Shown here in pieces: positions 3,763 through 21,607 of a DNA stretch of 64,000 nt (its first letter is position 1; each line of letters starts with the position of its first letter). Position numbers and translations under genes: made by a program. The DNA is from Escherichia coli (GTDB lineage Bacteria > Pseudomonadota > Gammaproteobacteria > Enterobacterales > Enterobacteriaceae), in the NCBI RefSeq assembly GCF_013122565.1, contig NZ_CP053258.1. One strand, written 5' to 3'. The notes beneath the pieces are model-generated. The model was given only the letters and a program-made list of their open reading frames with translations, did not search any database and had not been told where the DNA came from.

Positions 3763-5259
3763 ATGCAGGGCACAAAAATTCGACTTTTAGCGGGCGGTTT
3801 GCTGATGATGGCCACTGCTGGCTATGTGCAGGCAGATGCGCTCCAGCCTGATCCAGCATGGCAACAGGGGACGCTTTCCAACGGTTTACAGTGGCAAGTG
3901 CTGACCACCCCCCAGCGTCCCAGCGATCGTGTTGAAATTCGCCTGCTGGTTAATACCGGTTCGCTCGCCGAAAGTACACAACAGAGCGGGTACAGTCACG
4001 CCATCCCTCGTATTGCGCTAACGCAAAGCGGTGGCCTTGACGCAGCACAGGCGCGTTCATTGTGGCAGCAGGGGATCGACCCTAAACGCCCTATGCCGCC
4101 GGTAATTGTCTCTTATGACACCACGCTGTTTAATCTGAGTTTGCCCAATAACCGTAACGACTTGCTGAAAGAAGCGCTCTCTTATCTGGCAAATGCCACT
4201 GGCAAACTGACCATCACACCAGAAACCATCAACCACGCGCTGCAAAGTCAGGACATGGTGGCAACCTGGCCTGCCGATACTAAAGAGGGCTGGTGGCGTT
4301 ATCGTCTGAAAGGATCAACCCTGTTAGGTCACGATCCTGCCGATCCGCTGAAACAACCCGTTGAAGCGGAAAAAATTAAAGATTTCTATCAGAAATGGTA
4401 CACCCCGGATGCAATGACGCTGCTGGTGGTGGGAAACGTTGATGCGCGCTCGGTCGTCGACCAAATCAACAAAACGTTTGGCGAACTGAAAGGCAAACGT
4501 GAAACGCCAGCTCCGGTGCCGACGCTTTCTCCGCTGCGTGCGGAAGCGGTGAGTATTATGACTGACGCGGTGCGTCAGGACCGGTTATCTATCATGTGGG
4601 ATACGCCGTGGCAGCCGATTCGTGAATCAGCCGCACTGCTGCGCTACTGGCGTGCGGACCTGGCCCGTGAGGCGCTGTTCTGGCATGTTCAGCAAGCGTT
4701 AAGCGCCAGTAACAGCAAAGACATCGGTCTTGGATTTGACTGCCGTGTGCTGTATCTGCGTGCGCAGTGTGCCATCAACATCGAATCACCAAACGACAAG
4801 CTGAACAGCAACCTTAATCTGGTGGCGCGTGAACTGGCGAAGGTTCGCGATAAAGGTCTGCCGGAAGAAGAGTTCAATGCGTTAGTGGCGCAAAAGAAAC
4901 TGGAGCTGCAGAAACTGTTTGCCGCCTATGCGCGAGCTGATACCGATATTCTGATGGGCCAGCGGATGCGTTCGTTGCAAAATCAGGTTGTCGATATCGC
5001 GCCGGAGCAATATCAGAAACTGCGCCAGGATTTCCTTAATAGCCTGACGGTAGAGATGTTAAATCAGGATCTGCGTCAGCAGTTGTCGAATGATATGGCA
5101 TTAATACTGCTGCAGCCTAAAGGCGAGCCGGAATTTAACATGAAAGCGTTGCAGGCGGCCTGGGATCAAATCATGGCCCCATCTACCGCCGCTGCGACCA
5201 CCTCTGTCGCCACGGATGACGTACATCCTGAAGTTTCGGATATTCCACCCGCACAGTAA
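3763..5259 (+). CDS. yhjJ: YhjJ, periplasmic M16-peptidase-family protein (probably non-catalytic)
   Basis: 498-aa ORF with N-terminal signal peptide (MQGTKIRLLAGGLLMMATAGYVQA); M16-like N-terminal region reads SHAIPR where active enzymes have HxxEH. Confidence 0.85.
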   Translation: MQGTKIRLLAGGLLMMATAGYVQADALQPDPAWQQGTLSNGLQWQVLTTPQRPSDRVEIRLLVNTGSLAESTQQSGYSHAIPRIALTQSGGLDAAQARSLWQQGIDPKRPMPPVIVSYDTTLFNLSLPNNRNDLLKEALSYLANATGKLTITPETINHALQSQDMVATWPADTKEGWWRYRLKGSTLLGHDPADPLKQPVEAEKIKDFYQKWYTPDAMTLLVVGNVDARSVVDQINKTFGELKGKRETPAPVPTLSPLRAEAVSIMTDAVRQDRLSIMWDTPWQPIRESAALLRYWRADLAREALFWHVQQALSASNSKDIGLGFDCRVLYLRAQCAINIESPNDKLNSNLNLVARELAKVRDKGLPEEEFNALVAQKKLELQKLFAAYARADTDILMGQRMRSLQNQVVDIAPEQYQKLRQDFLNSLTVEMLNQDLRQQLSNDMALILLQPKGEPEFNMKALQAAWDQIMAPSTAAATTSVATDDVHPEVSDIPPAQ

Positions 5260-5266
5260 TAAATAA

Positions 5267-5298
5267 CCCGGCAGCGTTTCTTCTGCGCTGCCGGGATT
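5267..5298 (+). terminator. Putative hairpin terminator after yhjJ
   Basis: Stem cccggcagcg / cgctgccggg directly after the yhjJ stop; weak T tract. Confidence 0.4.
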
Positions 5299-5457
5299 AA
5301 CGGTAATGAATAAGTTGCCGTGATATACCCGCAGAGATTTTTCCAGGCACGGCGGTAGCGTGCAGATAACCATTCATTATTAGAATAAACTTACGGCTGT
5401 GTGAGTTTAATTATTTATTGGCTGAATAAATTGCCAGGAAATAGATGGTGTTAAATA

Positions 5458-5718
5458 ATGGCCTATCATATAGAAATATGGGAAATTGAAGAAACTGATA
5501 AAGTAGTAAAATATGAATTTGGACCTATATCTTCTGACTATTGTAGATCTGATTACGGCGAGTTCGTGATAGATAAAAGAACGGGGGAGATGACATTAGT
5601 CAGACTGGTTAAAAACGATTCGGCTAATAAATTTTATTTGCGAGCGAGTTTTAAGATTCTGACCTGTTGGCGAAAGGGCTATTTGCCAAAAACAAGGAAT
5701 GAGCTTCTTAATAAGTAA
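5458..5718 (+). CDS. Hypothetical small protein (86 aa), AT-rich accessory ORF
   Basis: ATG-initiated ORF, very low GC, first of five co-directional small ORFs; no family recognised. Confidence 0.4.
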   Translation: MAYHIEIWEIEETDKVVKYEFGPISSDYCRSDYGEFVIDKRTGEMTLVRLVKNDSANKFYLRASFKILTCWRKGYLPKTRNELLNK

Positions 5719-5779
5719 CTTTGCATAATAAGTGAATTTTCCCATTTTTGGGGGGCAGTCGTTGATTCTTACACAGTTT

Positions 5780-6028
5780 ATGTTATGGGTGCAGAAAAAC
5801 ACTGGGCATAATATTAAAAGCAATGCCAATACCTTATCAACCAGCATAGTTATTGATTTTGATAATGATATCCATATTGCCAGATTTACAGGTTGGGATG
5901 ATTTAAGTTGTATGTCAGAAGTTATATGCGTTGAATCGGGTGATTATAAATTAAATCAGCGAAATGAATTCCATACTTATGATTCGCTAAGGATAATATT
6001 TGATGCTTTAATAGAAAGCATACAGTAA
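5780..6028 (+). CDS. Hypothetical small protein (about 82 aa from first ATG; 98 aa if non-ATG start at 5732)
   Basis: ORF in the same AT-rich cluster; start codon unclear and no convincing RBS. Confidence 0.3.
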   Translation: MLWVQKNTGHNIKSNANTLSTSIVIDFDNDIHIARFTGWDDLSCMSEVICVESGDYKLNQRNEFHTYDSLRIIFDALIESIQ

Positions 6029-6088
6029 CTTTTTTCTTAGTAAGAAAATAATATACACGAGTATATCTAATTAAATTTAGGATAGGCT

Positions 6089-6568
6089 ATGGATTTTCAC
6101 CTGGATATTTTGCTCCCTACACGTTTCGCTCCAGAGGAACTAGATCTACAAGAGGTTATGGTTCACTGGGGTGGGGAAACCTTTCATCGCGACCCTCCTG
6201 TATACGCCTGGTGTAATCATTATCTCTTGCAGAGATGTAATATACCGATTACTTATGGCCAACCTTTAGATGAGCACATAGACTTTAATGAATACCATAT
6301 TTACAACTTCAATGGTTCTATAGTCGATGAGCTGGAAATGGCTGTGAATAAAGGAAAGGATATTTCAACCGATCCTATAATTAAAATTATTAACAACCTG
6401 ATTAGCAAAAAGTACAGGGGGTGGTTAATCTTGTCATTAGATGATGAAAAAATAGAAGTAATTAAAAATATAAGTTCCCAGTGTTCTTTTCAATCGTTAT
6501 TAGTTGATGGACTAAAATGGGAAAGACCACATGGGGTGGCAATATTATATAATTCACACTTAATTTAA
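6089..6568 (+). CDS. Hypothetical protein (159 aa), AT-rich accessory ORF
   Basis: ATG start preceded by aggatagg RBS-like sequence; no recognised motifs. Confidence 0.45.
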   Translation: MDFHLDILLPTRFAPEELDLQEVMVHWGGETFHRDPPVYAWCNHYLLQRCNIPITYGQPLDEHIDFNEYHIYNFNGSIVDELEMAVNKGKDISTDPIIKIINNLISKKYRGWLILSLDDEKIEVIKNISSQCSFQSLLVDGLKWERPHGVAILYNSHLI

Positions 6569-6585
6569 TTAATGAAAGGAAACAT

Positions 6586-6888
6586 ATGTATCGTGCAAAG
6601 GTTGTTTGGCTTACAGATAAAGAAGGTGGTAGAAGGAGCGCTCCTCCCATCGGTAGATACTATCCCGTCTCCAGATTTCCAGAGGAGCAAACTGACTGGC
6701 AAAATAATGCATGGAGTGTTGTTTTTGAATTGGAAAAACCTAATGTAACCGATGGACGTATCGTTTCAATGGGGGGCGTTCAGTTCCTTTTCGATACTGC
6801 CCCTGCACAATGGATGACTAAGTACGAGGCATTTGAAATCTACGAAGGACCAAGAAAAGTCGCAGATGTATTCTTGATAGAAAATTAA
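6586..6888 (+). CDS. Hypothetical protein (100 aa)
   Basis: ATG start preceded by aaaggaaa RBS; 17 nt after the previous ORF stop, suggesting an operon. Confidence 0.45.
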   Translation: MYRAKVVWLTDKEGGRRSAPPIGRYYPVSRFPEEQTDWQNNAWSVVFELEKPNVTDGRIVSMGGVQFLFDTAPAQWMTKYEAFEIYEGPRKVADVFLIEN

Positions 6889-6948
6889 TTTTATTTATGT
6901 CAGTCAATTTAAGCATATTTGCGACTCAACGCATGTTCAGGAGTGTAA

Positions 6949-7482
6949 ATGCGCTACAAAAAAGTCATGCTATTATTGCTAACAGTCATTCTTTGCTTAA
7001 CCGGTCTTTATTCCTGCAACAAAAATTTTCTCTTACTCTGGGATGCCAATAATATTTATGTCAGTACAAAAAATAATATCGATAAAGACAAGGTGAAAAT
7101 AGAATTCGGCATCAGCGTCAACACGATCAACCGAGAAACGGATGCCGAATTATTTGCTGACAGAGATAAGTATACCGTGCTCTTCGATGGTAGCCTGAAA
7201 AGCAAGATGATAAACGAGTACGGCGAAAATGATTTTTTAATTACCTACGATGACCGCTGCTATTTATCATTTCGTCAATTTAAAACCAATCGTCGTCATC
7301 AACATGACTATTATTTTTACTTCTTTAACAAGGATGGGAATGTCTTCGTCACGGTCGAAATTAAAGGTGAGAACCCGCTTAAATTTACACGTAGTTTAAA
7401 TGATATGCGTCAGCAGTTTTCACCATTCCGTAAGGGTAGCACTTCTCACTCCTGCAAGGTTATTTCTTCAGATCCTTCTTAA
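6949..7482 (+). CDS. Hypothetical putative lipoprotein (177 aa)
   Basis: ATG with aggagtg RBS; N-terminal signal-like sequence ending LTGLYSC (lipobox-like cysteine); 3' end overlaps the convergent lipoprotein gene by about 23 nt. Confidence 0.45.
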   Translation: MRYKKVMLLLLTVILCLTGLYSCNKNFLLLWDANNIYVSTKNNIDKDKVKIEFGISVNTINRETDAELFADRDKYTVLFDGSLKSKMINEYGENDFLITYDDRCYLSFRQFKTNRRHQHDYYFYFFNKDGNVFVTVEIKGENPLKFTRSLNDMRQQFSPFRKGSTSHSCKVISSDPS

Positions 7483-9502
7483 ACACTGGTTCTGGACAAT
7501 CACGACCAAAATGCGCAGCCCAGTCAAAAAATTTACCGTTTTTCACGTAGCGTTGATAAATTAATGCACCGGTTTCTGGATCAAGATATCTGACCCAACT
7601 TGCAGCATGGCATAAGACGGCAGCCCATGCTTGGGTTTTAGGGTGAAGTAAATAGGCAGATTGTTCGGCCCATTCCGCAGCCTGCCAGCGGTAATGCAAA
7701 AAGTGATCATCAGCGGTGGGGATCGCGTGGCGAATACGTTTATTTTCTTTACGACTTATCCATTGATCGTTATTGCTGTATTCAAAGGGGGACGAATATT
7801 GCCCGCTGGTAATGGCATAATCGGGATACATTTCATAAGCCACTAATTCGATACCACTGAAACGCAAAAGCCGCGCAGCTTCGTATTGTGCCTGGGCGCG
7901 TTGCTTATCAGGGATGTTTTTATTTTTCGCTATCGCCATTAAATCAGCCAGTTTTTGTGCGGCCTGGCGATAATTGGGAATATCAAACCAATTGATGGCC
8001 TGCTGATATTGACCATGACGTATTAATCGTCTCCCTAATAGCGCACGTAATTTAACATCCGTTGGAATGATATCTGGCGAAATATAATAACCGTAATTGC
8101 TATTGTTTAAATCTACAGGTTTTAAAGGGTGCTGAGGTGCCGGTACGTTGTTTTCAACAAACGCCTGTAACTCCGGCAAGGTCAAAACGTTTTCTGCAAC
8201 CCAGGCTAAATCGGCCCAATAGAGATCTTTCGCCTGGTAAAACAATGCAGCCGCCTGAAGATAATCATCGCGTTTTAATGCTAAAATCGCCTGCTCACTG
8301 GCAATACGGCAAGATGGGATAGTAACTTTATCTCCATGATAATAAGGGCTTTCCTGGTCCATACTTCCCCACATTTCATCGGTCGGGAACAGCGGGACTG
8401 CGCGAGCATAGTGACGCGTTGCCAGTGGAATATCTCCGGCTCGTAATGCCATTTTTGCTTTTAACCATTCGCTTAATCCACTTTCTGGCGCATCCTCCAA
8501 CAGCGTTTGTGCTAACGAATAATTTCCTGCCCGATACGCCAGTGCTGCCAGTCGATCGCTATAACTAAATCCTTTAACTCTGTGTTGACTTAGCAACTTA
8601 ATTAAACGGTCGCGATGCGTTGGACAGGTATAATCTACAAGGTCTTCAGTACAGGCTTCGCTAACATACCCCCAGTCATGACGAATAAAGAGCTCTGCGA
8701 TTACCAGTTGCTGAACCAGTGGATCATCAATAACCGATTCCAGCAGTGGTAAATTTTTCTCCCTGGTTAGATATAGCGAAATCATTCGTAACGAAGCTTT
8801 CCCGGAGGGCGAACCCTGGGCCGCTTGCCGGGCATAAATTTTTACTGCCGCAGCGACATCACCTTTTTTCAGATAATAATGCCCAATCTGACCGAGACTG
8901 GCGAGAGAGAGCTGCTCAGGATCGGCTGCGCCATTACGGACCTCTTCAATGATTTGCTGATAACGTTGTATGGCCTGCTCAGCAATTTCCTGATTAAAGC
9001 CGCCTTTATTGATTATAAGATCGAGATTGTCGTCAGTGGCATCAAATCCCCCTCTTGCCAGACTATATAGCGCAGCAAGACGCCATTCCCCTTGCTCTGT
9101 TTTCGGTAAGGCTAATAATTGCTGAAAGTAAGGGCTATCGTATTTTCCCTGATGAAAATCCTTAGCTCCTGAATAATAAAGCCACTGCGCATCAGATAAT
9201 GGTTTCTGCAATTTTTGCGCGATTTCCAGTGACCTATTTTGCACAGGAGACTCAGCATCATCATCTGTATTTTCCTGCGTTGCCTCCGCGGGCGTATTTT
9301 CATGCCATATTGGTAAACCAGGATCGCGTTTAGCCAACTGTTGTACTTCAAAGACAAAACTGCCATTTGGCATTTCCAGCAGTGCGCTATTGCGGTCAGT
9401 TAACAGATGGTTAGGAATAAATGGTCCACAGGCATTAACATTGGCGCTAATTAGTGAGAGAAATACAATAACGGAAATCCGCGATCTATTAGGGGATAAC
9501 AT
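7460..9502 (-). CDS. Putative outer-membrane/periplasmic lipoprotein with TPR/Sel1-like helical repeats (about 681 aa)
   Basis: Long ORF; most plausible start is the ATG preceded by aaggagag RBS giving MLSPNRSRISVIVFLSLISANVNAC (signal peptide plus lipobox-like Cys); several degenerate A/Y/L-rich helical repeats. Function unknown. Confidence 0.6.
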   Translation of the reverse strand: MLSPNRSRISVIVFLSLISANVNACGPFIPNHLLTDRNSALLEMPNGSFVFEVQQLAKRDPGLPIWHENTPAEATQENTDDDAESPVQNRSLEIAQKLQKPLSDAQWLYYSGAKDFHQGKYDSPYFQQLLALPKTEQGEWRLAALYSLARGGFDATDDNLDLIINKGGFNQEIAEQAIQRYQQIIEEVRNGAADPEQLSLASLGQIGHYYLKKGDVAAAVKIYARQAAQGSPSGKASLRMISLYLTREKNLPLLESVIDDPLVQQLVIAELFIRHDWGYVSEACTEDLVDYTCPTHRDRLIKLLSQHRVKGFSYSDRLAALAYRAGNYSLAQTLLEDAPESGLSEWLKAKMALRAGDIPLATRHYARAVPLFPTDEMWGSMDQESPYYHGDKVTIPSCRIASEQAILALKRDDYLQAAALFYQAKDLYWADLAWVAENVLTLPELQAFVENNVPAPQHPLKPVDLNNSNYGYYISPDIIPTDVKLRALLGRRLIRHGQYQQAINWFDIPNYRQAAQKLADLMAIAKNKNIPDKQRAQAQYEAARLLRFSGIELVAYEMYPDYAITSGQYSSPFEYSNNDQWISRKENKRIRHAIPTADDHFLHYRWQAAEWAEQSAYLLHPKTQAWAAVLCHAASWVRYLDPETGALIYQRYVKNGKFFDWAAHFGRDCPEPVFKKDLKK

Positions 9503-10694
9503 TGAACTCTCCTTGTATTTTTTTATTGCAGCGCGCCCATCCCAGCGGACTGCTTTCTCCGGCACGCAGCTGCCTGTCGCTTATCCTTACAAAATGCAGG
9601 CTGGATGAGCCAGGTTGCACCTGATAGTGGCTTACTCCATCAGCGAATAGACAATCTGCATTGGGCAGAATTATTTGTTTTGGCAACGGCGCATCAATTA
9701 CGCCGCTGTTTTTAAAGGCCAGATCAAAAAGTTGCTTGTCTGTATGTTGAGTAATTATTAACGACCAGCGCGGAGTCAGCGGTTGATGTCGAATCACGGC
9801 TTCCAGTGTTGTCAGTGACCAGGCGCGGCGATCGCCTGCTAACGGTAGCCGAAACCATACCAACCCCTGTAATCCACGCGGTGGTTGCTGTTCTATATAT
9901 TGAATAAACTCGGCAATCGTTTGTGGAGATACACTTAGTTCTTGCATTTCATCAGCAACGTATAGCGGGGATTCGCTTTCGACACGATTATCACTGGTGA
10001 GTGCGGAGCCATAAGCGGGCAATGCGATGAAAAAAGGGTGCGTGGTTTGCCTGGCATATTGCTTTACCCAACGCTGCGCCAGACTGACATCTAACAGGCC
10101 TTTTTCGGGCGACAGCACGTTATGTACCTGGAAAACCGAAGTGTCCGCAATCCGCAATAATCGAGCGAGATGTGGTGATTCAAGCCAGGTGGGCAGGGCG
10201 GTAACGCTGAGTTTTAGATTTGTGGGAAGTGCCTGATGTAACGCACTAAGTAGGGTCTGATATTCCGGCAATTTTGCTGTTGGCGCGTCATAATCAATTT
10301 CCACCCCTGCCAGTGTAATACCTGCGTTTTGCCACTCACGTTGGGTTTGTTGAATATGCTGTATTATTTGCTGGTTATTAAGCCCTGTTAGCTGACCATC
10401 GAGTCGCGCGACCAGCCAGACCGGGCGACCATCCTGCTTAATAAGCGAAGTATTCACCGCAAAATGTCGGATGCCTTCCTGTAGATGAAATTGCATCCCG
10501 AGTATGCGCAGTGTAGAAAAAAGTGAACGGCTTTGTTTTAGAGCGCTGGTATGTTCTGCTGTCCATACACGTTGCCAGATATAGGCTTGCTGATCAAAGC
10601 GAAGCGGCTGTGAGGGGGTAAATAAATTATGCAGCCCATAACCCAGGCAGATCAGAAGAAGTGAAGCTGCAATAATCCTTTTGCAAGATGGCAT
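9489..10694 (-). CDS. Putative secreted or membrane-anchored protein (401 aa), DUF3142-like by recollection
   Basis: ORF with N-terminal hydrophobic segment (RIIAASLLLICLGYGL); stop overlaps the start of the downstream lipoprotein gene by about 14 nt, suggesting translational coupling. Confidence 0.6.
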   Translation of the reverse strand: MPSCKRIIAASLLLICLGYGLHNLFTPSQPLRFDQQAYIWQRVWTAEHTSALKQSRSLFSTLRILGMQFHLQEGIRHFAVNTSLIKQDGRPVWLVARLDGQLTGLNNQQIIQHIQQTQREWQNAGITLAGVEIDYDAPTAKLPEYQTLLSALHQALPTNLKLSVTALPTWLESPHLARLLRIADTSVFQVHNVLSPEKGLLDVSLAQRWVKQYARQTTHPFFIALPAYGSALTSDNRVESESPLYVADEMQELSVSPQTIAEFIQYIEQQPPRGLQGLVWFRLPLAGDRRAWSLTTLEAVIRHQPLTPRWSLIITQHTDKQLFDLAFKNSGVIDAPLPKQIILPNADCLFADGVSHYQVQPGSSSLHFVRISDRQLRAGESSPLGWARCNKKIQGEFNVIP

Positions 10695-10788
10695 ATTGTC
10701 ACGGCATAACGATCATCAACAGGGCGGTAGTGTACTGCCGAAACTATTAACGGAGAACGAATATCTACCCGTTCTCCGTCAAAAACCA

Positions 10789-11718
10789 TTATGCAGGCAT
10801 TGCTTCACGCGGGATAATCGCGCCGCGATACTGAATAACGGTACTTGCGGTCAGGTGCCCGCGTTTCGCCGCGTCTTCCGCACTGCCGCCCGTCAAACGT
10901 ACCGCCAGATAACCGGCACTGAAAGAGTCGCCAGCTGCGGTGGTATCGATCACTTTTTCTTTCGGCAGTTTCACCGCTGGAACATCCACTAACCCTTCGC
11001 CAGCAATAGACACCAGGCAAGAATCCGCCCCGCGTTTCACCACCACTTCTTTCACGCCCGCGTTATGGGTGCGCGCAATGACGTCTTCCACCGGCTGTTG
11101 ACCCCACAGCGCGTCTTCATCGTCCAGCGTCAGGAAGGCGATATCCGTGCATTCCAGCATTTGTTGGTACACCTGCTGTGTCTCTTCTTTGCTGGCCCAC
11201 AGGCGCGGACGATAGTTATTGTCGAAAATCACTTTTCCGCCGTTGGCGCGGCATTCGCGCAGCAGGGAAAGCAGCTTTTCGCGGCTGGTCGGGCTTAAGA
11301 TCGCCAGGCTAATCCCGCTCAGGTAGAGATAATCGAAATTCGCCAGCTCTGCACAAATCGCCGCAGACTGCTCGCTCTCCAGCCAGAATTTGGCAGCGGC
11401 TTCGTTACGCCAGTAGTAGAACGTACGTTCGCCGGTGCTGTCGGTTTCAATGTAGTAAAGGCCCGGCAGACGGTTTTCCATCCGTTGGGTCAGGGAAGTA
11501 TCAACGTTCTCGCCGTGCCAGGCGTCCAGCATCTGCTGGCTAAAACTGTCCGTTCCCAGCGCCGTTACGTAATGAACGGTTAATGCCGCAGGATCGACCT
11601 GACGGGCGATATAGACGGAAGTGTTCAGGGTATCGCCGCCGAAACCGCGCTTAACGTCCGCGCCTTTCTCGGAAAGCTCAATCATGCATTCGCCAATCAC
11701 GGCAATCTTTTTGGACAT
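10789..11718 (-). CDS. kdgK: 2-dehydro-3-deoxygluconokinase KdgK
   Basis: 309 aa from MSKKIAVIGECMIEL; PfkB-family sugar kinase; the ORF track extends 28 codons further upstream. Confidence 0.9.
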   Translation of the reverse strand: MSKKIAVIGECMIELSEKGADVKRGFGGDTLNTSVYIARQVDPAALTVHYVTALGTDSFSQQMLDAWHGENVDTSLTQRMENRLPGLYYIETDSTGERTFYYWRNEAAAKFWLESEQSAAICAELANFDYLYLSGISLAILSPTSREKLLSLLRECRANGGKVIFDNNYRPRLWASKEETQQVYQQMLECTDIAFLTLDDEDALWGQQPVEDVIARTHNAGVKEVVVKRGADSCLVSIAGEGLVDVPAVKLPKEKVIDTTAAGDSFSAGYLAVRLTGGSAEDAAKRGHLTASTVIQYRGAIIPREAMPA

Positions 11719-11948
11719 AGTCGTGAACCTGATCTGTAAAAAATTAGCGTTAGTTTGCGCTGTGGTGGTTTGCTGGTCAACCATATTAAAACAGTGTTCC
11801 ATTATTTTTTTGAGCCAGAACGTATTCCTGAAAGATTCCGTTGTAGAGGGGGAAATTTACCCCGGCCAGGCGGTAAAGTTCTGCCCTTGCGCGCCGATAA
11901 TCTTTGTCGAGTCCGGGCAGCATCACTTTTAAACACAGGACATCTTTG

Positions 11949-12716
11949 ATGATAAGGCAGGTTATCCAGCGAATAAGCAACCCTGAAGCAAGCATCGAGA
12001 GCTTGCAGGAACGGCGTTTTTGGTTGCAGTGTGAGCGTGCTTACACCTGGCAGCCGATCTATCAAACATGCGGACGGTTAATGGCCGTGGAGCTATTAAC
12101 GGTGGTCACGCATCCCTTGACCCCTTCGCAACGCCTGTCGCCGGATCGCTATTTTACTGAAATCACCGTCAGCCATCGGATGGAGGTTGTGAAAGAGCAG
12201 ATTGATTTGCTGGCGCAAAAAGCCGACTTCTTTATAGAACACGGCCTGCTGGCATCGGTCAATATTGATGGCCCTACGCTCATCGCTCTGCGTCAGCAAC
12301 CAAAAATCCTGCGCCAGATTGAGCGTCTTCCCTGGCTGCGTTTCGAACTGGTGGAACACATCCGTCTGCCGAAAGATTCAACCTTTGCCTCGATGTGTGA
12401 ATTTGGCCCGCTGTGGCTGGATGATTTTGGTACCGGGATGGCAAATTTCTCTGCGCTAAGTGAAGTGCGTTATGACTACATCAAAATCGCGCGAGAACTG
12501 TTTGTGATGCTGCGTCAGTCGCCGGAAGGCCGCACACTCTTTTCTCAGCTTTTACATCTAATGAATCGCTATTGTCGCGGGGTGATTGTCGAGGGCGTAG
12601 AAACACCGGAAGAGTGGCGTGATGTTCAGAACTCGCCCGCATTCGCCGCACAAGGCTGGTTTCTTTCACGCCCGGCACCGATAGAAACGCTGAATACGGC
12701 GGTTCTGGCGCTATAA
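11949..12716 (+). CDS. pdeH: c-di-GMP phosphodiesterase PdeH (YhjH), EAL-only protein
   Basis: 255 aa from MIRQVIQRISNPEA; EAL domain with ELL variant motif. Confidence 0.9.
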   Translation: MIRQVIQRISNPEASIESLQERRFWLQCERAYTWQPIYQTCGRLMAVELLTVVTHPLTPSQRLSPDRYFTEITVSHRMEVVKEQIDLLAQKADFFIEHGLLASVNIDGPTLIALRQQPKILRQIERLPWLRFELVEHIRLPKDSTFASMCEFGPLWLDDFGTGMANFSALSEVRYDYIKIARELFVMLRQSPEGRTLFSQLLHLMNRYCRGVIVEGVETPEEWRDVQNSPAFAAQGWFLSRPAPIETLNTAVLAL

Positions 12717-12785
12717 GCTGCCTCATTTTCCGCCTGGCTGGACTATCTTTAGGACTGGCACAGGAAGAATATGAGGAAGCGAACG

Positions 12786-14846
12786 ATGAGCAAGGCAGGC
12801 AAAATAACCGCTGCGATTTCAGGGGCTTTCTTGTTGTTGATTGTCGTGGCGATCATTTTGATTGCAACTTTTGACTGGAATCGACTCAAACCGACCATCA
12901 ACCAGAAAGTCTCTGCGGAGTTGAATCGTCCGTTCGCTATCCGTGGCGATCTGGGCGTGGTGTGGGAGCGGCAAAAACAGGAAACCGGCTGGCGCAGCTG
13001 GGTGCCGTGGCCCCATATACACGCGGAAGACATCATTCTCGGCAACCCACCAGATATTCCCGAAGTCACGATGGTGCATTTGCCACGCGTAGAGGCAACG
13101 CTGGCACCGCTGGCGCTGCTGACCAAAACGGTCTGGCTGCCGTGGATCAAGCTCGAAAAGCCCGACGCGCGCCTGATTCGCCTCTCTGAAAAGAACAATA
13201 ACTGGACGTTTAATCTTGCCAACGATGACAACAAAGACGCGAATGCAAAGCCGTCGGCATGGTCGTTTCGGCTGGATAATATTCTGTTCGATCAAGGGCG
13301 GATCGCTATTGATGACAAAGTAAGCAAAGCGGATCTGGAAATTTTTGTTGATCCGTTAGGCAAGCCGCTGCCGTTCAGTGAAGTTACTGGATCGAAAGGT
13401 AAAGCGGATAAAGAAAAGGTCGGCGATTACGTTTTTGGCCTGAAGGCGCAGGGACGTTATAACGGTGAACCGCTCACGGGTAAGGGGAAAATTGGCGGTA
13501 TGCTGGCGCTGCGTGGCGAAGGGACGCCGTTTCCGGTACAGGCTGATTTCCGTTCAGGTAATACCCGTGTTGCTTTTGATGGCGTCGTGAATGACCCAAT
13601 GAAGATGGGCGGTGTCGATTTACGGCTTAAATTTTCTGGCGATTCACTGGGTGATCTCTATGAACTGACGGGCGTTCTGCTGCCCGATACCCCGCCGTTT
13701 GAAACGGATGGTCGGCTGGTAGCGAAAATCGACACAGAAAAATCGTCGGTCTTTGATTATCGCGGCTTTAATGGGCGCATTGGCGATAGCGATATCCACG
13801 GTTCTCTGGTCTACACCACCGGCAAGCCACGACCAAAACTGGAAGGTGATGTCGAGTCGCGGCAATTGCGGCTGGCGGACCTGGGACCGTTGATTGGCGT
13901 TGATTCCGGGAAAGGAGCAGAAAAGTCGAAACGGTCTGAACAGAAGAAGGGTGAAAAAAGCGTTCAGCCTGCGGGCAAAGTGCTGCCTTATGATCGCTTC
14001 GAAACCGATAAATGGGACGTTATGGATGCCGATGTTCGCTTCAAAGGCCGACGTATCGAGCATGGCAGTAGCCTGCCGATTAGCGATCTTTCTACTCATA
14101 TCATCCTCAAAAATGCTGACCTGCGCCTGCAACCGCTGAAATTTGGCATGGCGGGCGGCAGCATTGCGGCGAATATTCATCTGGAAGGCGATAAAAAGCC
14201 GATGCAGGGGCGGGCAGATATTCAGGCTCGTCGACTGAAACTGAAAGAACTGATGCCCGATGTGGAACTGATGCAGAAGACGCTGGGGGAAATGAACGGT
14301 GACGCGGAACTACGCGGTAGCGGTAACTCGGTGGCGGCACTTTTAGGCAACAGTAACGGCAACCTGAAACTGTTGATGAATGACGGGCTGGTGAGCCGCA
14401 ACCTGATGGAGATTGTTGGGCTGAATGTCGGCAACTACATTGTCGGTGCGATATTTGGTGACGATGAGGTGCGGGTGAACTGCGCGGCGGCGAATCTTGA
14501 TATTGCCAACGGCGTGGCGCGCCCGCAGATCTTTGCTTTCGATACGGAGAACGCGTTGATTAACGTTACCGGCACGGCAAGTTTTGCTTCGGAACAGCTG
14601 GATTTGACTATTGATCCGGAGAGTAAAGGAATTCGGATTATCACACTGCGTTCGCCGCTGTATGTGCGTGGGACGTTTAAAAATCCGCAGGCTGGGGTGA
14701 AAGCCGGGCCGTTGATTGCTCGCGGAGCCGTTGCGGCGGCACTGGCAACGCTGGTTACGCCAGCGGCGGCGTTACTGGCGCTGATCTCACCTTCCGAAGG
14801 GGAGGCTAATCAGTGTCGGACGATTTTGTCGCAGATGAAGAAGTGA
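12786..14846 (+). CDS. yhjG: AsmA-family protein YhjG
   Basis: 686 aa from MSKAGKIT; N-terminal TM anchor then large periplasmic domain typical of the AsmA family. Confidence 0.85.
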   Translation: MSKAGKITAAISGAFLLLIVVAIILIATFDWNRLKPTINQKVSAELNRPFAIRGDLGVVWERQKQETGWRSWVPWPHIHAEDIILGNPPDIPEVTMVHLPRVEATLAPLALLTKTVWLPWIKLEKPDARLIRLSEKNNNWTFNLANDDNKDANAKPSAWSFRLDNILFDQGRIAIDDKVSKADLEIFVDPLGKPLPFSEVTGSKGKADKEKVGDYVFGLKAQGRYNGEPLTGKGKIGGMLALRGEGTPFPVQADFRSGNTRVAFDGVVNDPMKMGGVDLRLKFSGDSLGDLYELTGVLLPDTPPFETDGRLVAKIDTEKSSVFDYRGFNGRIGDSDIHGSLVYTTGKPRPKLEGDVESRQLRLADLGPLIGVDSGKGAEKSKRSEQKKGEKSVQPAGKVLPYDRFETDKWDVMDADVRFKGRRIEHGSSLPISDLSTHIILKNADLRLQPLKFGMAGGSIAANIHLEGDKKPMQGRADIQARRLKLKELMPDVELMQKTLGEMNGDAELRGSGNSVAALLGNSNGNLKLLMNDGLVSRNLMEIVGLNVGNYIVGAIFGDDEVRVNCAAANLDIANGVARPQIFAFDTENALINVTGTASFASEQLDLTIDPESKGIRIITLRSPLYVRGTFKNPQAGVKAGPLIARGAVAAALATLVTPAAALLALISPSEGEANQCRTILSQMKK

Positions 14847-14885
14847 TGAGGTTGGATTGTGTTTGCTGGTGAGTTCGGGAGCAGC

Positions 14886-15075
14886 GTGTTCCCCTCACCC
14901 TAACCCTCTCCCCAAAGGGGCGAGGGGACTGTTTTGTGCGTGTTGAAACAACGAGTACCGCTTTTCCGTTCACTTTCTGGGGGGAGGGCTGTTATGTTCG
15001 CGATATAACATCTCGCTCCGCTTTTCTCCCTCTCCCTTTCAGGGAGAGGGCTGGGGTGAGGGTGGCAGCCCGCAC
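14886..15075. repeat. Intergenic palindromic repeat unit: two inverted copies of a ccctcaccctaaccctctcccc-type motif
   Basis: cccctcaccctaaccctctccccaaaggggcgagggg near 14890 and its reverse complement (gggagagggctggggtgaggg) near 15040; a third copy lies at about 16724. Family name not assigned. Confidence 0.5.
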
Positions 15076-15080
15076 GATAC

Positions 15081-16403
15081 TTACAACGACTGATGTCGCG
15101 TCTCATGGGTCAGCAGCAGGGCGATTAACGTCAAGCCAGCCATCGCCGCCAGATATAACCCCACCGCACCTAACCCGTAGTTAGTCTGCAACCAGGCTGC
15201 GATATACGGCGCAACGGAAGCCCCGAGAATCGACGATACGTTGTAAGAGAACGATGCTCCGGTGTAACGCACTTCTGTCGGAAACAGCTCTGGTAACAGC
15301 GCACCCATCGGCCCGAAGGTCAGCCCCATCAGACTTAACCCCAGCAGCAGGAAGGCAAAAACCAGAATGGGGTTGCCAGAACCGAGCAGCGGGTTAAAGG
15401 CGAACAGCGCGAACAGGATGATCAGCGTGGTGATAATTACCATGCTTTTACGGCGACCAAAGGCATCAGCCAGTAATCCGGCGACTGGCACCATCACGCC
15501 AAAACCAATAACTGCCATCATCAGCATCCACAACACTTCGTTACGTGGCAGGCCAAGCCCAACTGGCGCGGCGGCGGTACTAAAGGTCATAGAGTAGACC
15601 GTCATGATGTAAAACAGCGTATAGGTTGCCAGCATGATGAAGGTACCGAGCACCGTGACGCGAACATGTTTGGTCAGCAGCGTACCCAGCGGGATCTTCA
15701 CCTGTTTTTTCGCTTTAGCGACTTTCTCAAACACCGGCGACTCATGCAGCGACACGCGAACATACAGGCCGATAATGACCAGCACCGCCGAGAAGATAAA
15801 CGGCACACGCCAGCCCCAGCTCATAAACTGCTCGTCGGTCAGTAGCCAGGAAAGCAGCAAGAAAGTGCCGTTGGCAAAGAAGAAGCCAATCGGTGCGCCC
15901 AGCTGCGGGAAGGAGCCATACAGTGCACGTTTACGCGGTGGGGCGTTTTCAGTCGCCAGCAGCGCCGCGCCGCCCCATTCACCGCCTAAGCCCAGACCCT
16001 GACCAAATCGAGCCAGCGCCAGCAGCAGCGGGGCGAAAATACCAATCGTGGCATAGCCCGGCAGCAGACCAATCACCACGGTCGAAATCCCCATCGTTAG
16101 CAACGAGGCGACCAGCGTCGCTTTACGCCCAACGCGATCGCCAAAATGACCAAATACGGCAGAGCCAATGGGGCGCGCGACGAAGGCGATGGCGAAGGTG
16201 GCGAGCGACTGTAGCGTTGCTGCCGTTGGATCGCCCTGCGGAAAGAAGATATGCGGAAACACAATAACGGCCGCAGTGGCGTAAATGTAAAAGTCGAAGA
16301 ACTCAATGGCCGTGCCAATGAGAGAGGCGACAAGGACTTTATTACGCGAGTTGATCGGCGTGTATTCTTGCTCGTGGTCGAGTGTTGTGGCTGTTGCTTG
16401 CAT
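15081..16403 (-). CDS. yhjE: MFS transporter YhjE
   Basis: 440-aa ORF with 12 predicted TM helices; recognised as YhjE. Confidence 0.9.
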   Translation of the reverse strand: MQATATTLDHEQEYTPINSRNKVLVASLIGTAIEFFDFYIYATAAVIVFPHIFFPQGDPTAATLQSLATFAIAFVARPIGSAVFGHFGDRVGRKATLVASLLTMGISTVVIGLLPGYATIGIFAPLLLALARFGQGLGLGGEWGGAALLATENAPPRKRALYGSFPQLGAPIGFFFANGTFLLLSWLLTDEQFMSWGWRVPFIFSAVLVIIGLYVRVSLHESPVFEKVAKAKKQVKIPLGTLLTKHVRVTVLGTFIMLATYTLFYIMTVYSMTFSTAAAPVGLGLPRNEVLWMLMMAVIGFGVMVPVAGLLADAFGRRKSMVIITTLIILFALFAFNPLLGSGNPILVFAFLLLGLSLMGLTFGPMGALLPELFPTEVRYTGASFSYNVSSILGASVAPYIAAWLQTNYGLGAVGLYLAAMAGLTLIALLLTHETRHQSL

Positions 16404-16721
16404 AATCTTTTCTTATTTTTTGGCTAACGAATAGCCATATTACGCACAGCAAAAGTGATATTTCAATGTGTAACAAATCGCGGAAATGGTCAAAAATAAG
16501 GCAAAAAGGGGATAATGTTTAGGCCAGTGATTTTTCTTCTATGAAATGCTTCACATAATTTTATAAATAGTGGATAAAACTGGTTTCAGGTTAAATAAAA
16601 GTTACCAACTGGATTTATATGCTGGGGTTATGAGTTGGTATGAAATTGTTTGCTCCTGAAGAGATGTGGTTTCAGGTGGTTATGTGCATGTCATTGCCTG
16701 GTCTCTGGCTGGCTTGTACCC

Positions 16722-16765
16722 CCTCACCCTAACCCTCTCCCCGGAGGGGCGAGGGGATCGACCGT
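16722..16765. repeat. Third copy of the ccctcaccctaaccctctcccc-type intergenic repeat
   Basis: ccccctcaccctaaccctctccccggaggggcgagggg, near-identical to the copy at 14890. Confidence 0.45.
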
Positions 16766-16794
16766 GCGTTTATCAGGCATTATAAACCAATGAA

Positions 16795-17808
16795 TTACCG
16801 CTGCGTTTTCCCCGGCATTCGCGGGTCGTCTTTATATTCGGCGGTGGCAATCCACGCCGCGCAAAACAGCGTCAAACGGGCGAAGAAGTAGAAAAATGCC
16901 ATCAGCCCCAGCACGGAACCAAATGCTGCGCCAGAGGGGGATTTCATCAACGATGGCAGGGTGTAGGTCATCACGATTTTAATCACTTCAAAACCAATAG
17001 CAGCCAGAAATGTTCCGCGAATCAGGGCTTTTTTGCGCGGACGGTGGCGCGGTAACCGCCAGAAGATCCAGAAGAAAAGCAGATAGTTGGCGAAGATGGA
17101 AATCGCCAGGCCAATCAACCGCCACGTCGGTTTCAGCCACTCAATGCTGTTCAGGTGCAGGGCGCTAATAATCATTTGCTGCGCCGAACCGGCAACCGAG
17201 GTGATCGAAAGCGTCACAATCAGCGCAATCAACAAACCAATCAGCGAAATAAAATCACGCAGATATTTTACCCAGAACTTCTCCTGATCTTGCGGCGAGC
17301 GTTCCCAGACATCGCGCGACTGGGCACGAATCGCTTCACGCAGGTTACCCATCCAGTTGATGCCGGAATAAAGTGCCACCGCCAGGCCGACAAGCCCTAC
17401 AGTCGTACGCTGCTGAACGGCGGTGTTGATGGTGTTTTTCAATGTGGCGGCTAGCGTCGGATCGCTGATGTTTTGCAGAATTTTGTCGAAGATATCCTGT
17501 AGCAACATCGGATGGGAGGCCAGCACAAAGCCCCCTGCGGCAAACGACACCATCAAAATCGGGATCATCGACAAAAATGAGAAATAGGTGATAGCTGCAC
17601 CAAACTGGTTACCCAGCCGATCGTTAAAGCGTTCTGTCGCGCGAATCAGGTGCGCAATAACCGGTTGGCGTTGGACTTTTTCGGCAGTGGTGGTGACGGT
17701 TTCCAGCGCCTGGCTAACTTTGCCGCCTTTCTCGCTATTATCCAACGGCTTAATCGGCTCGTGCTCCAGATCCTGGGTGGGACGTTTGATCTCGTTTTCC
17801 TGCGTCAT
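16795..17808 (-). CDS. yhjD: Inner-membrane protein YhjD (YihY/RNase BN-like family)
   Basis: 337-aa ORF; hydrophilic N-terminus followed by multiple TM segments. Confidence 0.9.
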   Translation of the reverse strand: MTQENEIKRPTQDLEHEPIKPLDNSEKGGKVSQALETVTTTAEKVQRQPVIAHLIRATERFNDRLGNQFGAAITYFSFLSMIPILMVSFAAGGFVLASHPMLLQDIFDKILQNISDPTLAATLKNTINTAVQQRTTVGLVGLAVALYSGINWMGNLREAIRAQSRDVWERSPQDQEKFWVKYLRDFISLIGLLIALIVTLSITSVAGSAQQMIISALHLNSIEWLKPTWRLIGLAISIFANYLLFFWIFWRLPRHRPRKKALIRGTFLAAIGFEVIKIVMTYTLPSLMKSPSGAAFGSVLGLMAFFYFFARLTLFCAAWIATAEYKDDPRMPGKTQR

Positions 17809-17856
17809 CCGCTCTTTTGTCCTTCTGTCGTGGTCATTCTTAAAAAGTATAGTCGG

Positions 17857-18756
17857 TCAGTCCAGGTACTCTTTCATTACGCCAGCCAGCCACTGCATAA
17901 ACAGGTTTACACGCCGGGAAAGCTCCCGACGCTGCGGATAAACCAGCGAAAGGGAGAGCGGCTCGGCACGGTAGCCTGGCAACACTTCAATAAGCCGCCC
18001 GGCACGCAGGGCTTCGCGCACGGCAATGCGCGGGATCTGAATAATCCCCAGACCGGCAAGACCGGCGGCGAGATAGTTTTCGCTACTGTTTACCGTCAAC
18101 ATGCCGCCAGACTTAAACCACTGGACGCCATTAACGCTGGCAACCTCAAAACCTAACGGATGTACACCCAGGTGCGGTGTATAACGCACTATTGCGTGTG
18201 AAGTCAGATCATCGGGGCTTTGCGGATAACCAAAGCGCGTCAGATAGTGCGGACTGGCACAGTTGACCATGGTCAGTTTGCCGAGGGGACGGGCGATAAC
18301 GCCATCTTCCGGTAACGCGCCAGTGCGTATCACGCAATCAAAACCATCATGAAGAATATCTACCGGACGGTCATGGCTACTCAGTTCCAGCTCAATTCCC
18401 GGATGCAGATAGAGAAATTCCGACAGGCGCGGCAGTAACAGGCTTTTCGCGATTCCTGGCGGGATGTCGATGCGTAATTTACCGCTGATACTGGTGGCAT
18501 CCTGTTGAAACAGACCGTCCAGTTCGCTGAGATTACTCAACACATCTTTTGCCCGTTGATAATAGGTCATGCCTTCTGGCGTGAGTTTGACCCGTCGCGT
18601 GGTGCGCTGGAGAAGCTGGGTGCCAAGTTGATGTTCCAGTGCCTGTATCTGGCGCGAAACACTTCCCTTTGGCAAAGCAAAGAAATCCGCCGCGCGGGAA
18701 AAACTTTCCAGCTCCGCGACTTTGATGAACAACTGCATTGCGTGAATTTTATCCAT
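17857..18756 (-). CDS. yhjC: LysR-family transcriptional regulator YhjC
   Basis: 299 aa from MDKIHAMQLFIKVAE; N-terminal HTH plus LysR substrate-binding domain; track ORF has a 24-codon N-terminal extension. Confidence 0.85.
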   Translation of the reverse strand: MDKIHAMQLFIKVAELESFSRAADFFALPKGSVSRQIQALEHQLGTQLLQRTTRRVKLTPEGMTYYQRAKDVLSNLSELDGLFQQDATSISGKLRIDIPPGIAKSLLLPRLSEFLYLHPGIELELSSHDRPVDILHDGFDCVIRTGALPEDGVIARPLGKLTMVNCASPHYLTRFGYPQSPDDLTSHAIVRYTPHLGVHPLGFEVASVNGVQWFKSGGMLTVNSSENYLAAGLAGLGIIQIPRIAVREALRAGRLIEVLPGYRAEPLSLSLVYPQRRELSRRVNLFMQWLAGVMKEYLD

Positions 18757-19274
18757 TTCTTTGACCGATTGTTGTTCACAGCGAAACAGTAACGCGCATA
18801 TCGCATTGTTTATTGTTTTTTCTAACATCTAATGCCGGGTTTCACAATGTTGTCATAACGAATGTGGCGATTTCTCAGCAGGAAAAGGGCGGAATAGCTT
18901 TATGAGAAGGTGAATCCCCTTAAACAGAGCGTATTTTTCAGCGATTCCCTTTAAAGTGAATAGAGGATGTATTGGCTATTTGTGCTTATTTTTGTCTCAT
19001 TGCCGTTTGTTATTTTGGCTTGTGGTCGCGGAATTTCATTTTTAATTGCATGCGTACTAACCACCAATATAAGGAAATCCTCAAAATTGTTTTAAATAGT
19101 GCCCTCGACATGTAATTTCAGGCGTTTAGCTGTAACTATTTATATCGGTAACTATTTTCTACGCGTCATCTCTGTAGAATGGCCACCGCCAAATGGCGAA
19201 TTCTTATTTTTTCTCGCGGGTAATACCCTTCCACTACTTAAGTCTTTTTAACGTATTCAGGTGGAGATTCAGTT

Positions 19275-19877
19275 ATGCAAATAGTCATGTTTGACAGGCA
19301 GTCAATATTTATTCATGGAATGAAAATCAGTTTACAGCAGCGTATTCCAGGAGTGAGTATTCAGGGGGCCAGTCAGGCAGACGAGTTATGGCAAAAGCTG
19401 GAAAGTTACCCTGAAGCCTTAGTTATGCTCGATGGCGATCAGGATGGTGAGTTTTGCTACTGGTTGCTGCAAAAAACCGTGGTGCAATTTCCTGAGGTTA
19501 AGGTGTTAATTACGGCGACGGATTGCAATAAACGGTGGTTACAGGAAGTTATCCATTTTAATGTGCTGGCCATTGTGCCTCGTGATTCAACCGTCGAGAC
19601 ATTTGCGTTGGCGGTAAATAGTGCGGCGATGGGGATGATGTTTCTGCCTGGAGACTGGCGAACGACGCCGGAAAAGGACATTAAAGATCTCAAATCGTTA
19701 AGCGCCCGCCAGCGGGAGATTTTAACCATGTTAGCGGCGGGTGAATCAAATAAAGAGATCGGCAGGGCGCTGAATATCAGTACCGGAACGGTAAAAGCGC
19801 ATCTGGAATCCCTGTATCGCCGTCTGGAAGTGAAAAATCGCACCCAGGCGGCAATGATGTTAAATATCTCCTCCTGA
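19275..19877 (+). CDS. yhjB: LuxR/FixJ-type response-regulator-like protein YhjB
   Basis: 200-aa ORF with C-terminal LuxR HTH (LSARQREILTMLAAGESNKEIGRALNISTGTVKAH). Confidence 0.9.
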   Translation: MQIVMFDRQSIFIHGMKISLQQRIPGVSIQGASQADELWQKLESYPEALVMLDGDQDGEFCYWLLQKTVVQFPEVKVLITATDCNKRWLQEVIHFNVLAIVPRDSTVETFALAVNSAAMGMMFLPGDWRTTPEKDIKDLKSLSARQREILTMLAAGESNKEIGRALNISTGTVKAHLESLYRRLEVKNRTQAAMMLNISS

Positions 19878-19886
19878 AGAGGATAA

Positions 19887-19926
19887 TTTTACAGCCAGCA
19901 GGAAGTTAGCGGCTGGCTGTAAAAAT
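19887..19926. terminator. Bidirectional intrinsic terminator between convergent yhjB and treF
   Basis: Stem cagccagc / gctggctg flanked by tttt upstream and aaaaata downstream. Confidence 0.6.
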
Positions 19927-19927
19927 A

Positions 19928-21607
<1,680 letters not shown>

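Follow-up and report, generated by a model that had tools for sequence, protein, structure and literature searches.

A toxin-free array of small genes between yhjJ and kdgK of Escherichia coli as a probable heterogeneous polyimmunity locus

A 64,000-nucleotide (nt) stretch of Escherichia coli DNA (contig NZ_CP053258.1 of assembly GCF_013122565.1; hereafter the window) carries five small open reading frames, ORF1 to ORF5, between the core genes yhjJ and kdgK. With a probability of roughly two in three, the five ORFs form a toxin-free, co-directional heterogeneous polyimmunity locus, i.e., an array of orphan immunity genes. Heterogeneous polyimmunity loci are tandem runs of closely spaced, same-strand genes of unrelated immunity families with no toxin genes or cassettes between them (PMC3482391). 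Their content differs between strains, a recombinase is adjacent in several cases without being obligatory, and pre-emptive protection against the toxins of non-kin cells was proposed as their role (PMC3482391). The genes in the window share one strand, are separated by gaps of 13–60 nt, are free of toxins and vary in content between lineages. Three of the five (ORF2, ORF4 and ORF1) belong to families with evidence of an immunity function.

In the proposed mechanism, the array would be transcribed as one unit, and each small protein would bind and block one incoming C-terminal toxin domain. These domains would arrive by Rhs/type VI secretion system (T6SS) or related weapons of competing Enterobacterales, and a cell with the array would be protected in advance from toxins that it does not itself encode. 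ORF3 and ORF5 would be immunity proteins as well, the latter as a periplasmic lipoprotein directed against an envelope-acting toxin, and the array is presumed to be expressed and protective.

All five ORFs that the original prediction, made from the sequence alone, had placed head to tail on the + strand are present, with intergenic gaps of 13, 60, 17 and 60 nt. The three clear ribosome-binding sites (RBS) claimed for the cluster were found as AGGA/AAGGAA/AGGAG Shine-Dalgarno sequences ahead of the ATG codons of ORF3, ORF4 and ORF5. The GC content of ORF1 to ORF5 was 0.33–0.43, as compared to 0.54 for yhjJ, 0.55 for kdgK and 0.48 for the whole window. This agrees with the predicted AT-richness, and composition together with a patchy distribution supports the horizontal origin that had been proposed. 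The ORFs are not pieces of one decayed gene, a possibility that was ruled out because they lie in different frames and have separate homologues: ORF1, ORF2, ORF4 and ORF5 each have full-length homologues of their own size elsewhere.

First, ORF2 (5732–6028, +; 98 amino acids (aa) if a GTG start is used) was identified as a member of a known immunity family, so that the earlier statement that none of the ORFs belongs to a recognizable family does not hold for this ORF. When the concatenated ORFs were scanned against Pfam, the single significant match was PF24689 'Immunity protein TriTu', on ORF2 (E 4.4e-15). Against TriTu in the PDB (7zhm_C, 87 aa), 49 of 85 positions were identical (58%; E 5.1e-27), and the alignment covered residues 2–86. 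Judged by this alignment, ORF2 is a full-length TriTu homologue, and its likely start is TTG at 5762 (88 aa), six bases after GGGGGG; the alternative ATG at 5780 would yield 82 aa. TreTu is the C-terminal toxin of the T6SS protein Rhs-main of Salmonella Typhimurium and ADP-ribosylates Asp21 of elongation factor Tu (EF-Tu), and TriTu neutralizes it as a lid that closes over the active site and traps NAD+ (PMC9825190). ORF2 is like the TriTu of this system, encoded in Salmonella pathogenicity island 6 (Jurenas et al. 2022, NAR; PMC9825190; PDB 7ZHM), from end to end. The window differs from the Salmonella locus in having neither TreTu nor an rhs gene in 64 kb. Since no TreTu-like sequence was detected in the window by tblastn, ORF2 is regarded as an orphan immunity gene. 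An intact TreTu-TriTu pair is present in Citrobacter (locus L006).

Second, the family of ORF4 (6586–6888, +; 100 aa) was found to be associated with an Rhs C-terminal (Rhs-CT) toxin domain. ORF4 matched neither Pfam nor any PDB sequence, and its family comprised only 12 clusters among 5.8 billion proteins. In Citrobacter werkmanii (L006), an ORF4 homologue lies in an array of orphan cassettes downstream of vgrG-DUF2169-rhs, an array that also holds an orphan TreTu (matching 7zhm_A with E 1.5e-53) followed by TriTu. The ORF4 homologue begins 22 nt past an ORF of 98 aa, which is itself preceded in frame by the Rhs core-end sequence PLSWIDPLGL. The same toxin domain, recognizable by a DPxGL linker followed by MVLYRGMSL...GIGPARYA..., directly precedes an ORF4-family gene at six loci: L006 (toxin domain at 9600–9978), L021 (an ENA contig; 1011–1598), L023 (Yersinia nurmii, from species-representative genomes scanned with a degenerate pattern; 2046–2663), and L028, L029 and L030, three metagenome loci retrieved with the conserved motif of the toxin itself. 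At the five loci besides L006, the two genes are spaced by 17–22 nt or overlap. The toxin domains were about 64–68% identical among the three copies aligned (L021 versus L006, 68%), and the Rhs core at L030 spans at least 414 aa before the contig breaks off. Because of these six conserved toxin-immunity adjacencies, gene neighbourhood, on which the assignment rests, argues strongly for the ORF4 family as the immunity partner of this Rhs-CT toxin domain. ORF4 homologues without an adjacent toxin occur in Serratia marcescens, L020 and Burkholderia, within Rhs or small-gene arrays; those of Serratia and L020 are PAAR-Rhs/barstar arrays.

TriTu and the ORF4 family were observed in one array in three independent settings, namely the window, Citrobacter (L006, 8492–10303) and L020 (9680–11998), where the two genes are 57 nt apart. 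This co-occurrence may reflect either a linked travelling cassette or a tie of both families to EF-Tu-directed toxins.

The toxin domain cognate to ORF4, of about 100 aa with the consensus ...YRGMSLDEY..LMK.G...MEGKWFAES...DPHLDGIGPARYA...C, had no Pfam match and no PDB sequence match. It resembles TreTu in an N-terminal stretch of 18 residues alone (YR[SG]MSLDEY..LMK.G versus GRWMGPDEYQQMIDTG), and this match was weak (E 0.012 by hhalign in a single comparison; E 0.02 by blastp). By counting residues from the motif, R-x-M-x-x-x-E-Y...TG, the Arg and Glu of the shared stretch would correspond to the NAD+ contacts R6 and E12 of TreTu (PMC9825190). A TreTu-like ADP-ribosyltransferase activity of this toxin is thus a working hypothesis that may serve as a lead.

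A possible relation to EF-Tu also arose from the fold of ORF4. ORF4 was modelled by AlphaFold as a linker fusion with ORF3 from a shallow alignment of eight rows, and the ORF4 half was predicted as a beta-barrel with a predicted local distance difference test (pLDDT) score of 50–80. When this model was compared to the PDB by Foldseek, nearly all of the top 50 matches were EF-Tu, EF1A or eRF3, with E-values of 1e-3 to 2e-2, about 100–117 columns in the shorter alignments and 16–22% identity for many bacterial EF-Tu entries. At the sequence level, no Pfam match of ORF4 to EF-Tu domain 3 (GTP_EFTU_D3) was obtained, the ORF4 family profile found no EF-Tu among the PDB sequences, and direct comparison of ORF4 with EF-Tu remained below significance (hhalign E 0.11; Smith-Waterman z 0.5–3.0). 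For three of the four family members tested, the best local alignment fell on the strands at the start of EF-Tu domain 3 (about residues 305–326, '...SKDEGGRHTP...'), the EF-Tu sequence used there having been entered by hand. The idea of a relation to EF-Tu arose from a motif seen by eye (KEGGR..P, FEIYEGP.KVA) and is carried by the fold searches, with no confirmation at the sequence level. Thus, an EF-Tu-domain-3-like fold of ORF4 is probable but not proven.

Since an EF-Tu-like fold coincides with a toxin that is possibly directed at EF-Tu, immunity by mimicry of the target suggests itself. The usual mode of immunity is plugging of the active site, and no description of EF-Tu-like or mimic immunity proteins was found in the open-access literature. 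According to this speculative and on balance unlikely extension, the ORF4 family would be a stand-alone EF-Tu domain 3 recruited for immunity, acting as a decoy of the EF-Tu surface recognized by the toxin, which would probably be a TreTu-like ADP-ribosyltransferase. With TriTu beside it, ORF4 would make the locus a dedicated EF-Tu shield in a strain without the corresponding weapons within the window.

Third, ORF1 (5458–5718, +; 86 aa) belongs to a family that appears to confer immunity to another toxin family. Exhaustive HMMER searches retrieved 16 representatives of the ORF1 family, most of 79–85 aa, and no Pfam match. A gene of this family lies 6 nt after the gene of a 2,438-aa TcB/TcC fusion with SpvB, TcdB-mid and RHS domains on two metagenome contigs (L016/L017), and an orphan Rhs tip of 154 aa (...PAKWVDPYGL) precedes another member by the same 6 nt in Xenorhabdus griffiniae (L013/L014). 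The C-terminal ~125 residues of the TcB/TcC and Xenorhabdus toxins were 54% identical (E 1e-43), and in a third ORF1-family member, the end of this toxin is apparently joined to the immunity protein, either as a true fusion or through a gene-calling error. The toxin had no Pfam or PDB match. These neighbourhoods suggest that the ORF1 family is the immunity partner of a toxin family carried on Rhs and TcC tips. The TcB/TcC protein (2678–9994 on L016/L017), a component of ABC/Tc toxins, thus shares its toxin domain with the Xenorhabdus orphan Rhs tip, and the pair is therefore common to Tc-type and Rhs-type scaffolds.

In X. griffiniae (CP133647.1, about 3.669–3.696 Mb), the ORF1-family gene is part of a unit of about 6.65 kb present in at least three tandem copies downstream of rhs. 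The unit encodes a primase-like protein, a tyrosine integrase, the orphan Rhs-CT toxin, the ORF1-family protein, SymE and a helix-turn-helix regulator, and looks like a mobile or amplifying cassette carrying Rhs tips. Matches of ORF1 to giant proteins (3,597 and 4,839 aa, in up to 10 stretches) were judged a chance likeness to a repeated 'F.ID..TG' motif, which is presumably cadherin-like.

A fourth link to toxin loci comes from a gene that the window lacks. The versions of the island in E. coli strains 042 and 2013C-4282 contain an additional gene encoding 141 aa (EcX141) directly upstream of ORF1, with overlapping stop and start codons. EcX141 matched neither Pfam nor PDB sequences; a homologue with 42% identity (E 3e-30) is located at 11564–11998 in the Rhs array of L020, together with TriTu and an ORF4 homologue.

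No toxin was found in the island itself. Searches by tblastn with TreTu, the toxins cognate to ORF4 and ORF1 and the Rhs core end gave no significant match there, the DPxGL motif was absent from every frame of 5260–10800, and no Rhs-sized ORF or toxin match was present within the 64-kb window. A tblastn match of the Rhs core end at 63700–63762 (E 0.005), antisense to apparent transporter genes, was dismissed as noise.

The two remaining ORFs are not tied to toxin loci in the same manner. ORF3 (6089–6568, +; 159 aa) had no Pfam, NCBIfam, PADLOC, PHROGs or PDB match, its half of the AlphaFold fusion model was unusable (pLDDT 20–50), and it was unrelated to both toxin families by hhalign. Only four homologues were found in total, and both of those whose contigs were fetched sit between yhjJ and kdgK in Escherichia. 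An immunity role of ORF3 is inferred from its position. ORF5 (6949–7482, +; 177 aa) opens with a signal peptide and the lipobox-like LTGLYSC, as expected from the lipoprotein-like signal noted earlier. Its 172 homologues were mostly from Bacteroidota (Riemerella, Tenacibaculum, Marivirga, Cyclobacteriaceae), with 50–60% identity and an invariant core, YGENDF..TYD....SFRQFK.NRRHQHDY, in a family without annotation. The likeness to lipoproteins of Flavobacteriia and Cytophagia (L011, L018, L019, L026) is unusually high for a comparison of Escherichia with Bacteroidota. Because of this identity of 50–60%, a fairly recent transfer between phyla is implied. A periplasmic immunity role of ORF5 as a predicted lipoprotein is plausible but unproven.

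The least improbable of the alternatives, though still an unlikely one, is that of a mixed island, in which ORF1, ORF2 and ORF4 confer immunity while ORF5, and perhaps ORF3, are unrelated to it. ORF5 would then be, e.g., a Bacteroidota envelope lipoprotein, possibly linked to ORF6 and ORF7, two minus-strand genes that follow in the same insert. The ORF5 homologues in Riemerella and a Bacteroidetes metagenome-assembled genome (MAG), which lie among housekeeping genes or beside a Fic protein, are in line with this explanation, as are the model of ORF5, a beta-sandwich with generic fold matches including TssJ-like lipoproteins, the overlap of the 3' ends of ORF5 and ORF6 by 23 nt, and the lack of a tie of ORF3 to any toxin. 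However, the 042-type island of about 170 complete E. coli genomes has retained ORF5 in the absence of ORF6 and ORF7. The Tenacibaculum homologue of ORF5 lies among small co-directional genes that include the immunity-type SMI1_KNR4 as well as DUF1963, which we take to be an immunity-type family, and the Marivirga homologue is found near Imm33, likewise of the immunity type. In addition, ORF3 and ORF5 have remained tightly linked to ORF4 on one strand in different lineages, and their synonymous divergence (dS) resembles that of the core genome.

The distribution of the island was surveyed in 5,426 complete E. coli genomes. The flanks matched 5,422 of them and the small-ORF cluster only 200, 170 of these over at least 80% of its length, so that about 96% of the genomes lack the cluster, which is strain-variable as had been supposed. 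All matches were chromosomal and single-copy, and the carriers include strain 042. A query with the full insert of 5.65 kb, which includes the ORF6/ORF7 module, was covered to at least 80% in only two genomes, e.g., 2013C-4282. Since the core flank at 12,000–20,000 was at best 97.9% identical to any of the surveyed genomes, the window appears to derive from a divergent E. coli lineage.

In a three-way DNA alignment that set the window beside E. coli 2013C-4282 and an empty, K-12-like site, reciprocal losses were seen. In the window, EcX141 has been cleanly removed by a 430-nt deletion with its junction at 5431/5432. In E. coli 042 and 2013C-4282, a 340-nt deletion takes ORF2 except for its first ~60 nt. 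Thus, the window retains TriTu without EcX141, and the two E. coli versions retain EcX141 without TriTu. A further lesion concerns ORF1 of the window, in which a 1-nt deletion in the A-run at 5688–5692 replaces the ending ...EWAS by ...TRNELLNK. A C-terminal end of the type W/F/Y-[AS]-[SA] is present in all 12 other members of a 13-member family alignment, and the E. coli copies of ORF1 are intact. The simplest history would be an ancestral six-gene array (EcX141, ORF1, TriTu, ORF3, ORF4 and ORF5) followed by lineage-specific losses, and by its sequence the array of the window strain is partly eroded.

The island genes showed a dS of 0.08–0.14 relative to E. coli 2013C-4282, similar to that of flanking yhjJ (0.14), which suggests that the island descends vertically at a fixed site. 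The ratio of nonsynonymous to synonymous divergence (dN/dS) was 0.25–0.53 for the island genes (0.45 for ORF3) and 0.03 for yhjJ. Taken together, these values indicate that the island has probably long been resident at its site under relaxed but still purifying selection.

The same data may also be read as decay. According to this second alternative, which is considered quite improbable and behind the mixed island, the ORFs would be what is left, without a current role, of a former toxin-immunity region of the Rhs/T6SS type and would be kept by weak selection and linkage. The lineage-specific deletions of EcX141 and TriTu, the frameshift at the 3' end of ORF1, the dN/dS values in excess of that of yhjJ, the absence of the cluster from most complete E. 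coli genomes and the lack of a promoter-like site above chance are all compatible with a relic. On the other hand, four of the five ORFs are full length in comparison with distant homologues, dN/dS is below 1 for all ORFs, and the ribosome-binding sites are intact. The island genes and the flanking core gene have the same dS, which implies that the open frames have been kept for long in AT-rich, stop-prone DNA.

A role as an anti-phage, abortive-infection or toxin-antitoxin module, one version of which takes ORF3 as toxin and ORF4 as antitoxin, is very improbable: the genes are small, tightly spaced, AT-rich and strain-variable, and ORF3, 17 nt upstream of ORF4, occupies the position of the toxin in other species, but no PADLOC or PHROGs match was significant, no enzymatic or NTPase domains were found among the ORFs by the Pfam scan, ORF1, ORF2 and ORF4 are already explained as immunity families, and ORF3 has its own RBS and ATG, lacks a DPxGL linker and was rejected as the toxin partner because hhalign found no similarity to the ORF4-cognate toxin family. 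Among the options listed in the original prediction, orphan immunity was thus borne out for three of the five ORFs, and the antitoxin, abortive-infection and anti-phage options were not, with no toxin or enzyme partner in sight.

Several points weigh against interpreting the five ORFs as a functional polyimmunity array. ORF1 of the window lacks the conserved C-terminus and may hence be inactive, and at 58% identity to the Salmonella protein, cross-protection by ORF2 would not be assured. ORF3 is without homologues beyond the locus and without a usable model, the fold matches of ORF5 are generic, and its Bacteroidota homologues have no consistent toxin neighbour, one of them lying among housekeeping genes. 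No convincing promoter or terminator was identified for the cluster, and no integrase or recombinase ORF lies between yhjJ and kdgK. A dN/dS about 10 times that of yhjJ together with deletions that differ between lineages fits relaxed selection or decay. Finally, the evidence for immunity covers three of the five ORFs, and functional statements that go beyond homology and gene neighbourhood are inferred.

The array was compared to known systems. As regards architecture, it is like the heterogeneous polyimmunity loci (Zhang et al. 2012, Biol Direct 7:18; PMC3482391), from which it differs in being small (five to six genes), with three genes (four with EcX141) tied to toxin loci. Its families other than TriTu are outside the catalogued Imm families and Pfam; it has no recombinase and occupies a fixed site between two core genes, apparently by vertical descent with losses. 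The acquired interbacterial defense (AID) clusters of gut Bacteroidales (Ross et al. 2019; bioRxiv 10.1101/471110) are likewise arrays of orphan immunity genes against the T6SS toxins of other strains or species, and the Bacteroidota-type ORF5 is a point of likeness. Unlike AID clusters, the array is located in Escherichia without an integrase, a recombinase or a mobile-element context, and the toxins implicated are Rhs tips of Enterobacterales. The arrays of orphan Rhs-CT/immunity cassettes (rhs-orphan of Salmonella; Citrobacter, Serratia and Yersinia) share the families TriTu, ORF4 and EcX141 as well as the tight spacing. In these arrays, toxin fragments alternate with immunity genes beside full-length rhs/vgrG, whereas the array in the window consists of immunity genes only and has no rhs, vgrG or T6SS gene nearby. 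Thus, the locus, which had been put forward as an undescribed system, is of a known kind, and what is new are two, possibly three, unnamed immunity families and their uncharacterized cognate toxin domains.

The array is the left part of a larger insert. At its left end, the window has pdeK (yhjK), dctA and yhjJ, all on the + strand (names from E. coli annotation), and the strain-variable insert extends over 5.5 kb from the yhjJ stop at 5259 to the kdgK stop at 10,789, without a counterpart in K-12-like genomes. In a K-12-like genome, 95 nt separate yhjJ from kdgK, in agreement with the adjacency given for K-12 in the original prediction. The left junction (5260–5457, +) contains a terminator-like hairpin of yhjJ at about 5267–5295 and the deletion scar between 5431 and 5432. 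The island end at 7482 given by the original prediction was too short, as the insert continues to about 10,790 with the two minus-strand genes. ORF6 (7460–9565, –), a TPR-like predicted lipoprotein, has 701 aa from a GTG, with a probable ATG at 9502, and ORF7 (9489–10694, –; 401 aa) is a DUF3142 protein (PF11340, E 5.5e-74), and its annotation in E. coli 2013C-4282 likewise names the DUF3142 domain. Both are convergent with the small ORFs and form a separate module of the same insert, the right end of which is marked by ORF7. Their GC content (0.45–0.49) is above that of the small ORFs, and ORF6 is absent from the 042-type island. The kdgK gene (–) and then pdeH follow from 10,789 onward. Scans of all seven island proteins against NCBIfam, PADLOC and PHROGs gave nothing significant: ORF1 to ORF5 matched no PADLOC model, the only PADLOC match in the insert was a non-significant one of ORF6 to Csx1/Csm6 (E 0.2), and PHROGs returned non-significant matches only.

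Two further copies of the region were noted. A 2.76-kb contig labelled 'MAG: Collinsella sp.' (L024, JAIJJM010000440.1) is a yhjJ-kdgK island of the E. coli 042 type and reaches into the end of kdgK; its presence in an actinobacterial MAG is almost certainly due to a binning contaminant. In GCA_019430965.1 (L009), the region bcsC-pdeK-dctA-yhjJ-island-kdgK is split into many short gene calls, which suggests a frameshift-rich, low-quality assembly and not real pseudogenes.

The locus extends the catalogue of an already described class and does not introduce a new principle. Two toxin-immunity pairs that are absent from Pfam, Rhs-CT/ORF4 family and TcC-Rhs-CT/ORF1 family, were delineated, and EcX141 is a candidate for a third immunity family. 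In addition, a specific hypothesis was raised, namely that an immunity protein may be derived from a domain of EF-Tu, the likely target of its toxin. For E. coli, hypothetical proteins of about 4% of the complete genomes, including the enteroaggregative reference strain 042, become readable as a probable defence against interbacterial toxins. In the gut, such genes could influence which lineages of Escherichia persist when they meet Salmonella, Citrobacter, Yersinia or Serratia armed with a T6SS.

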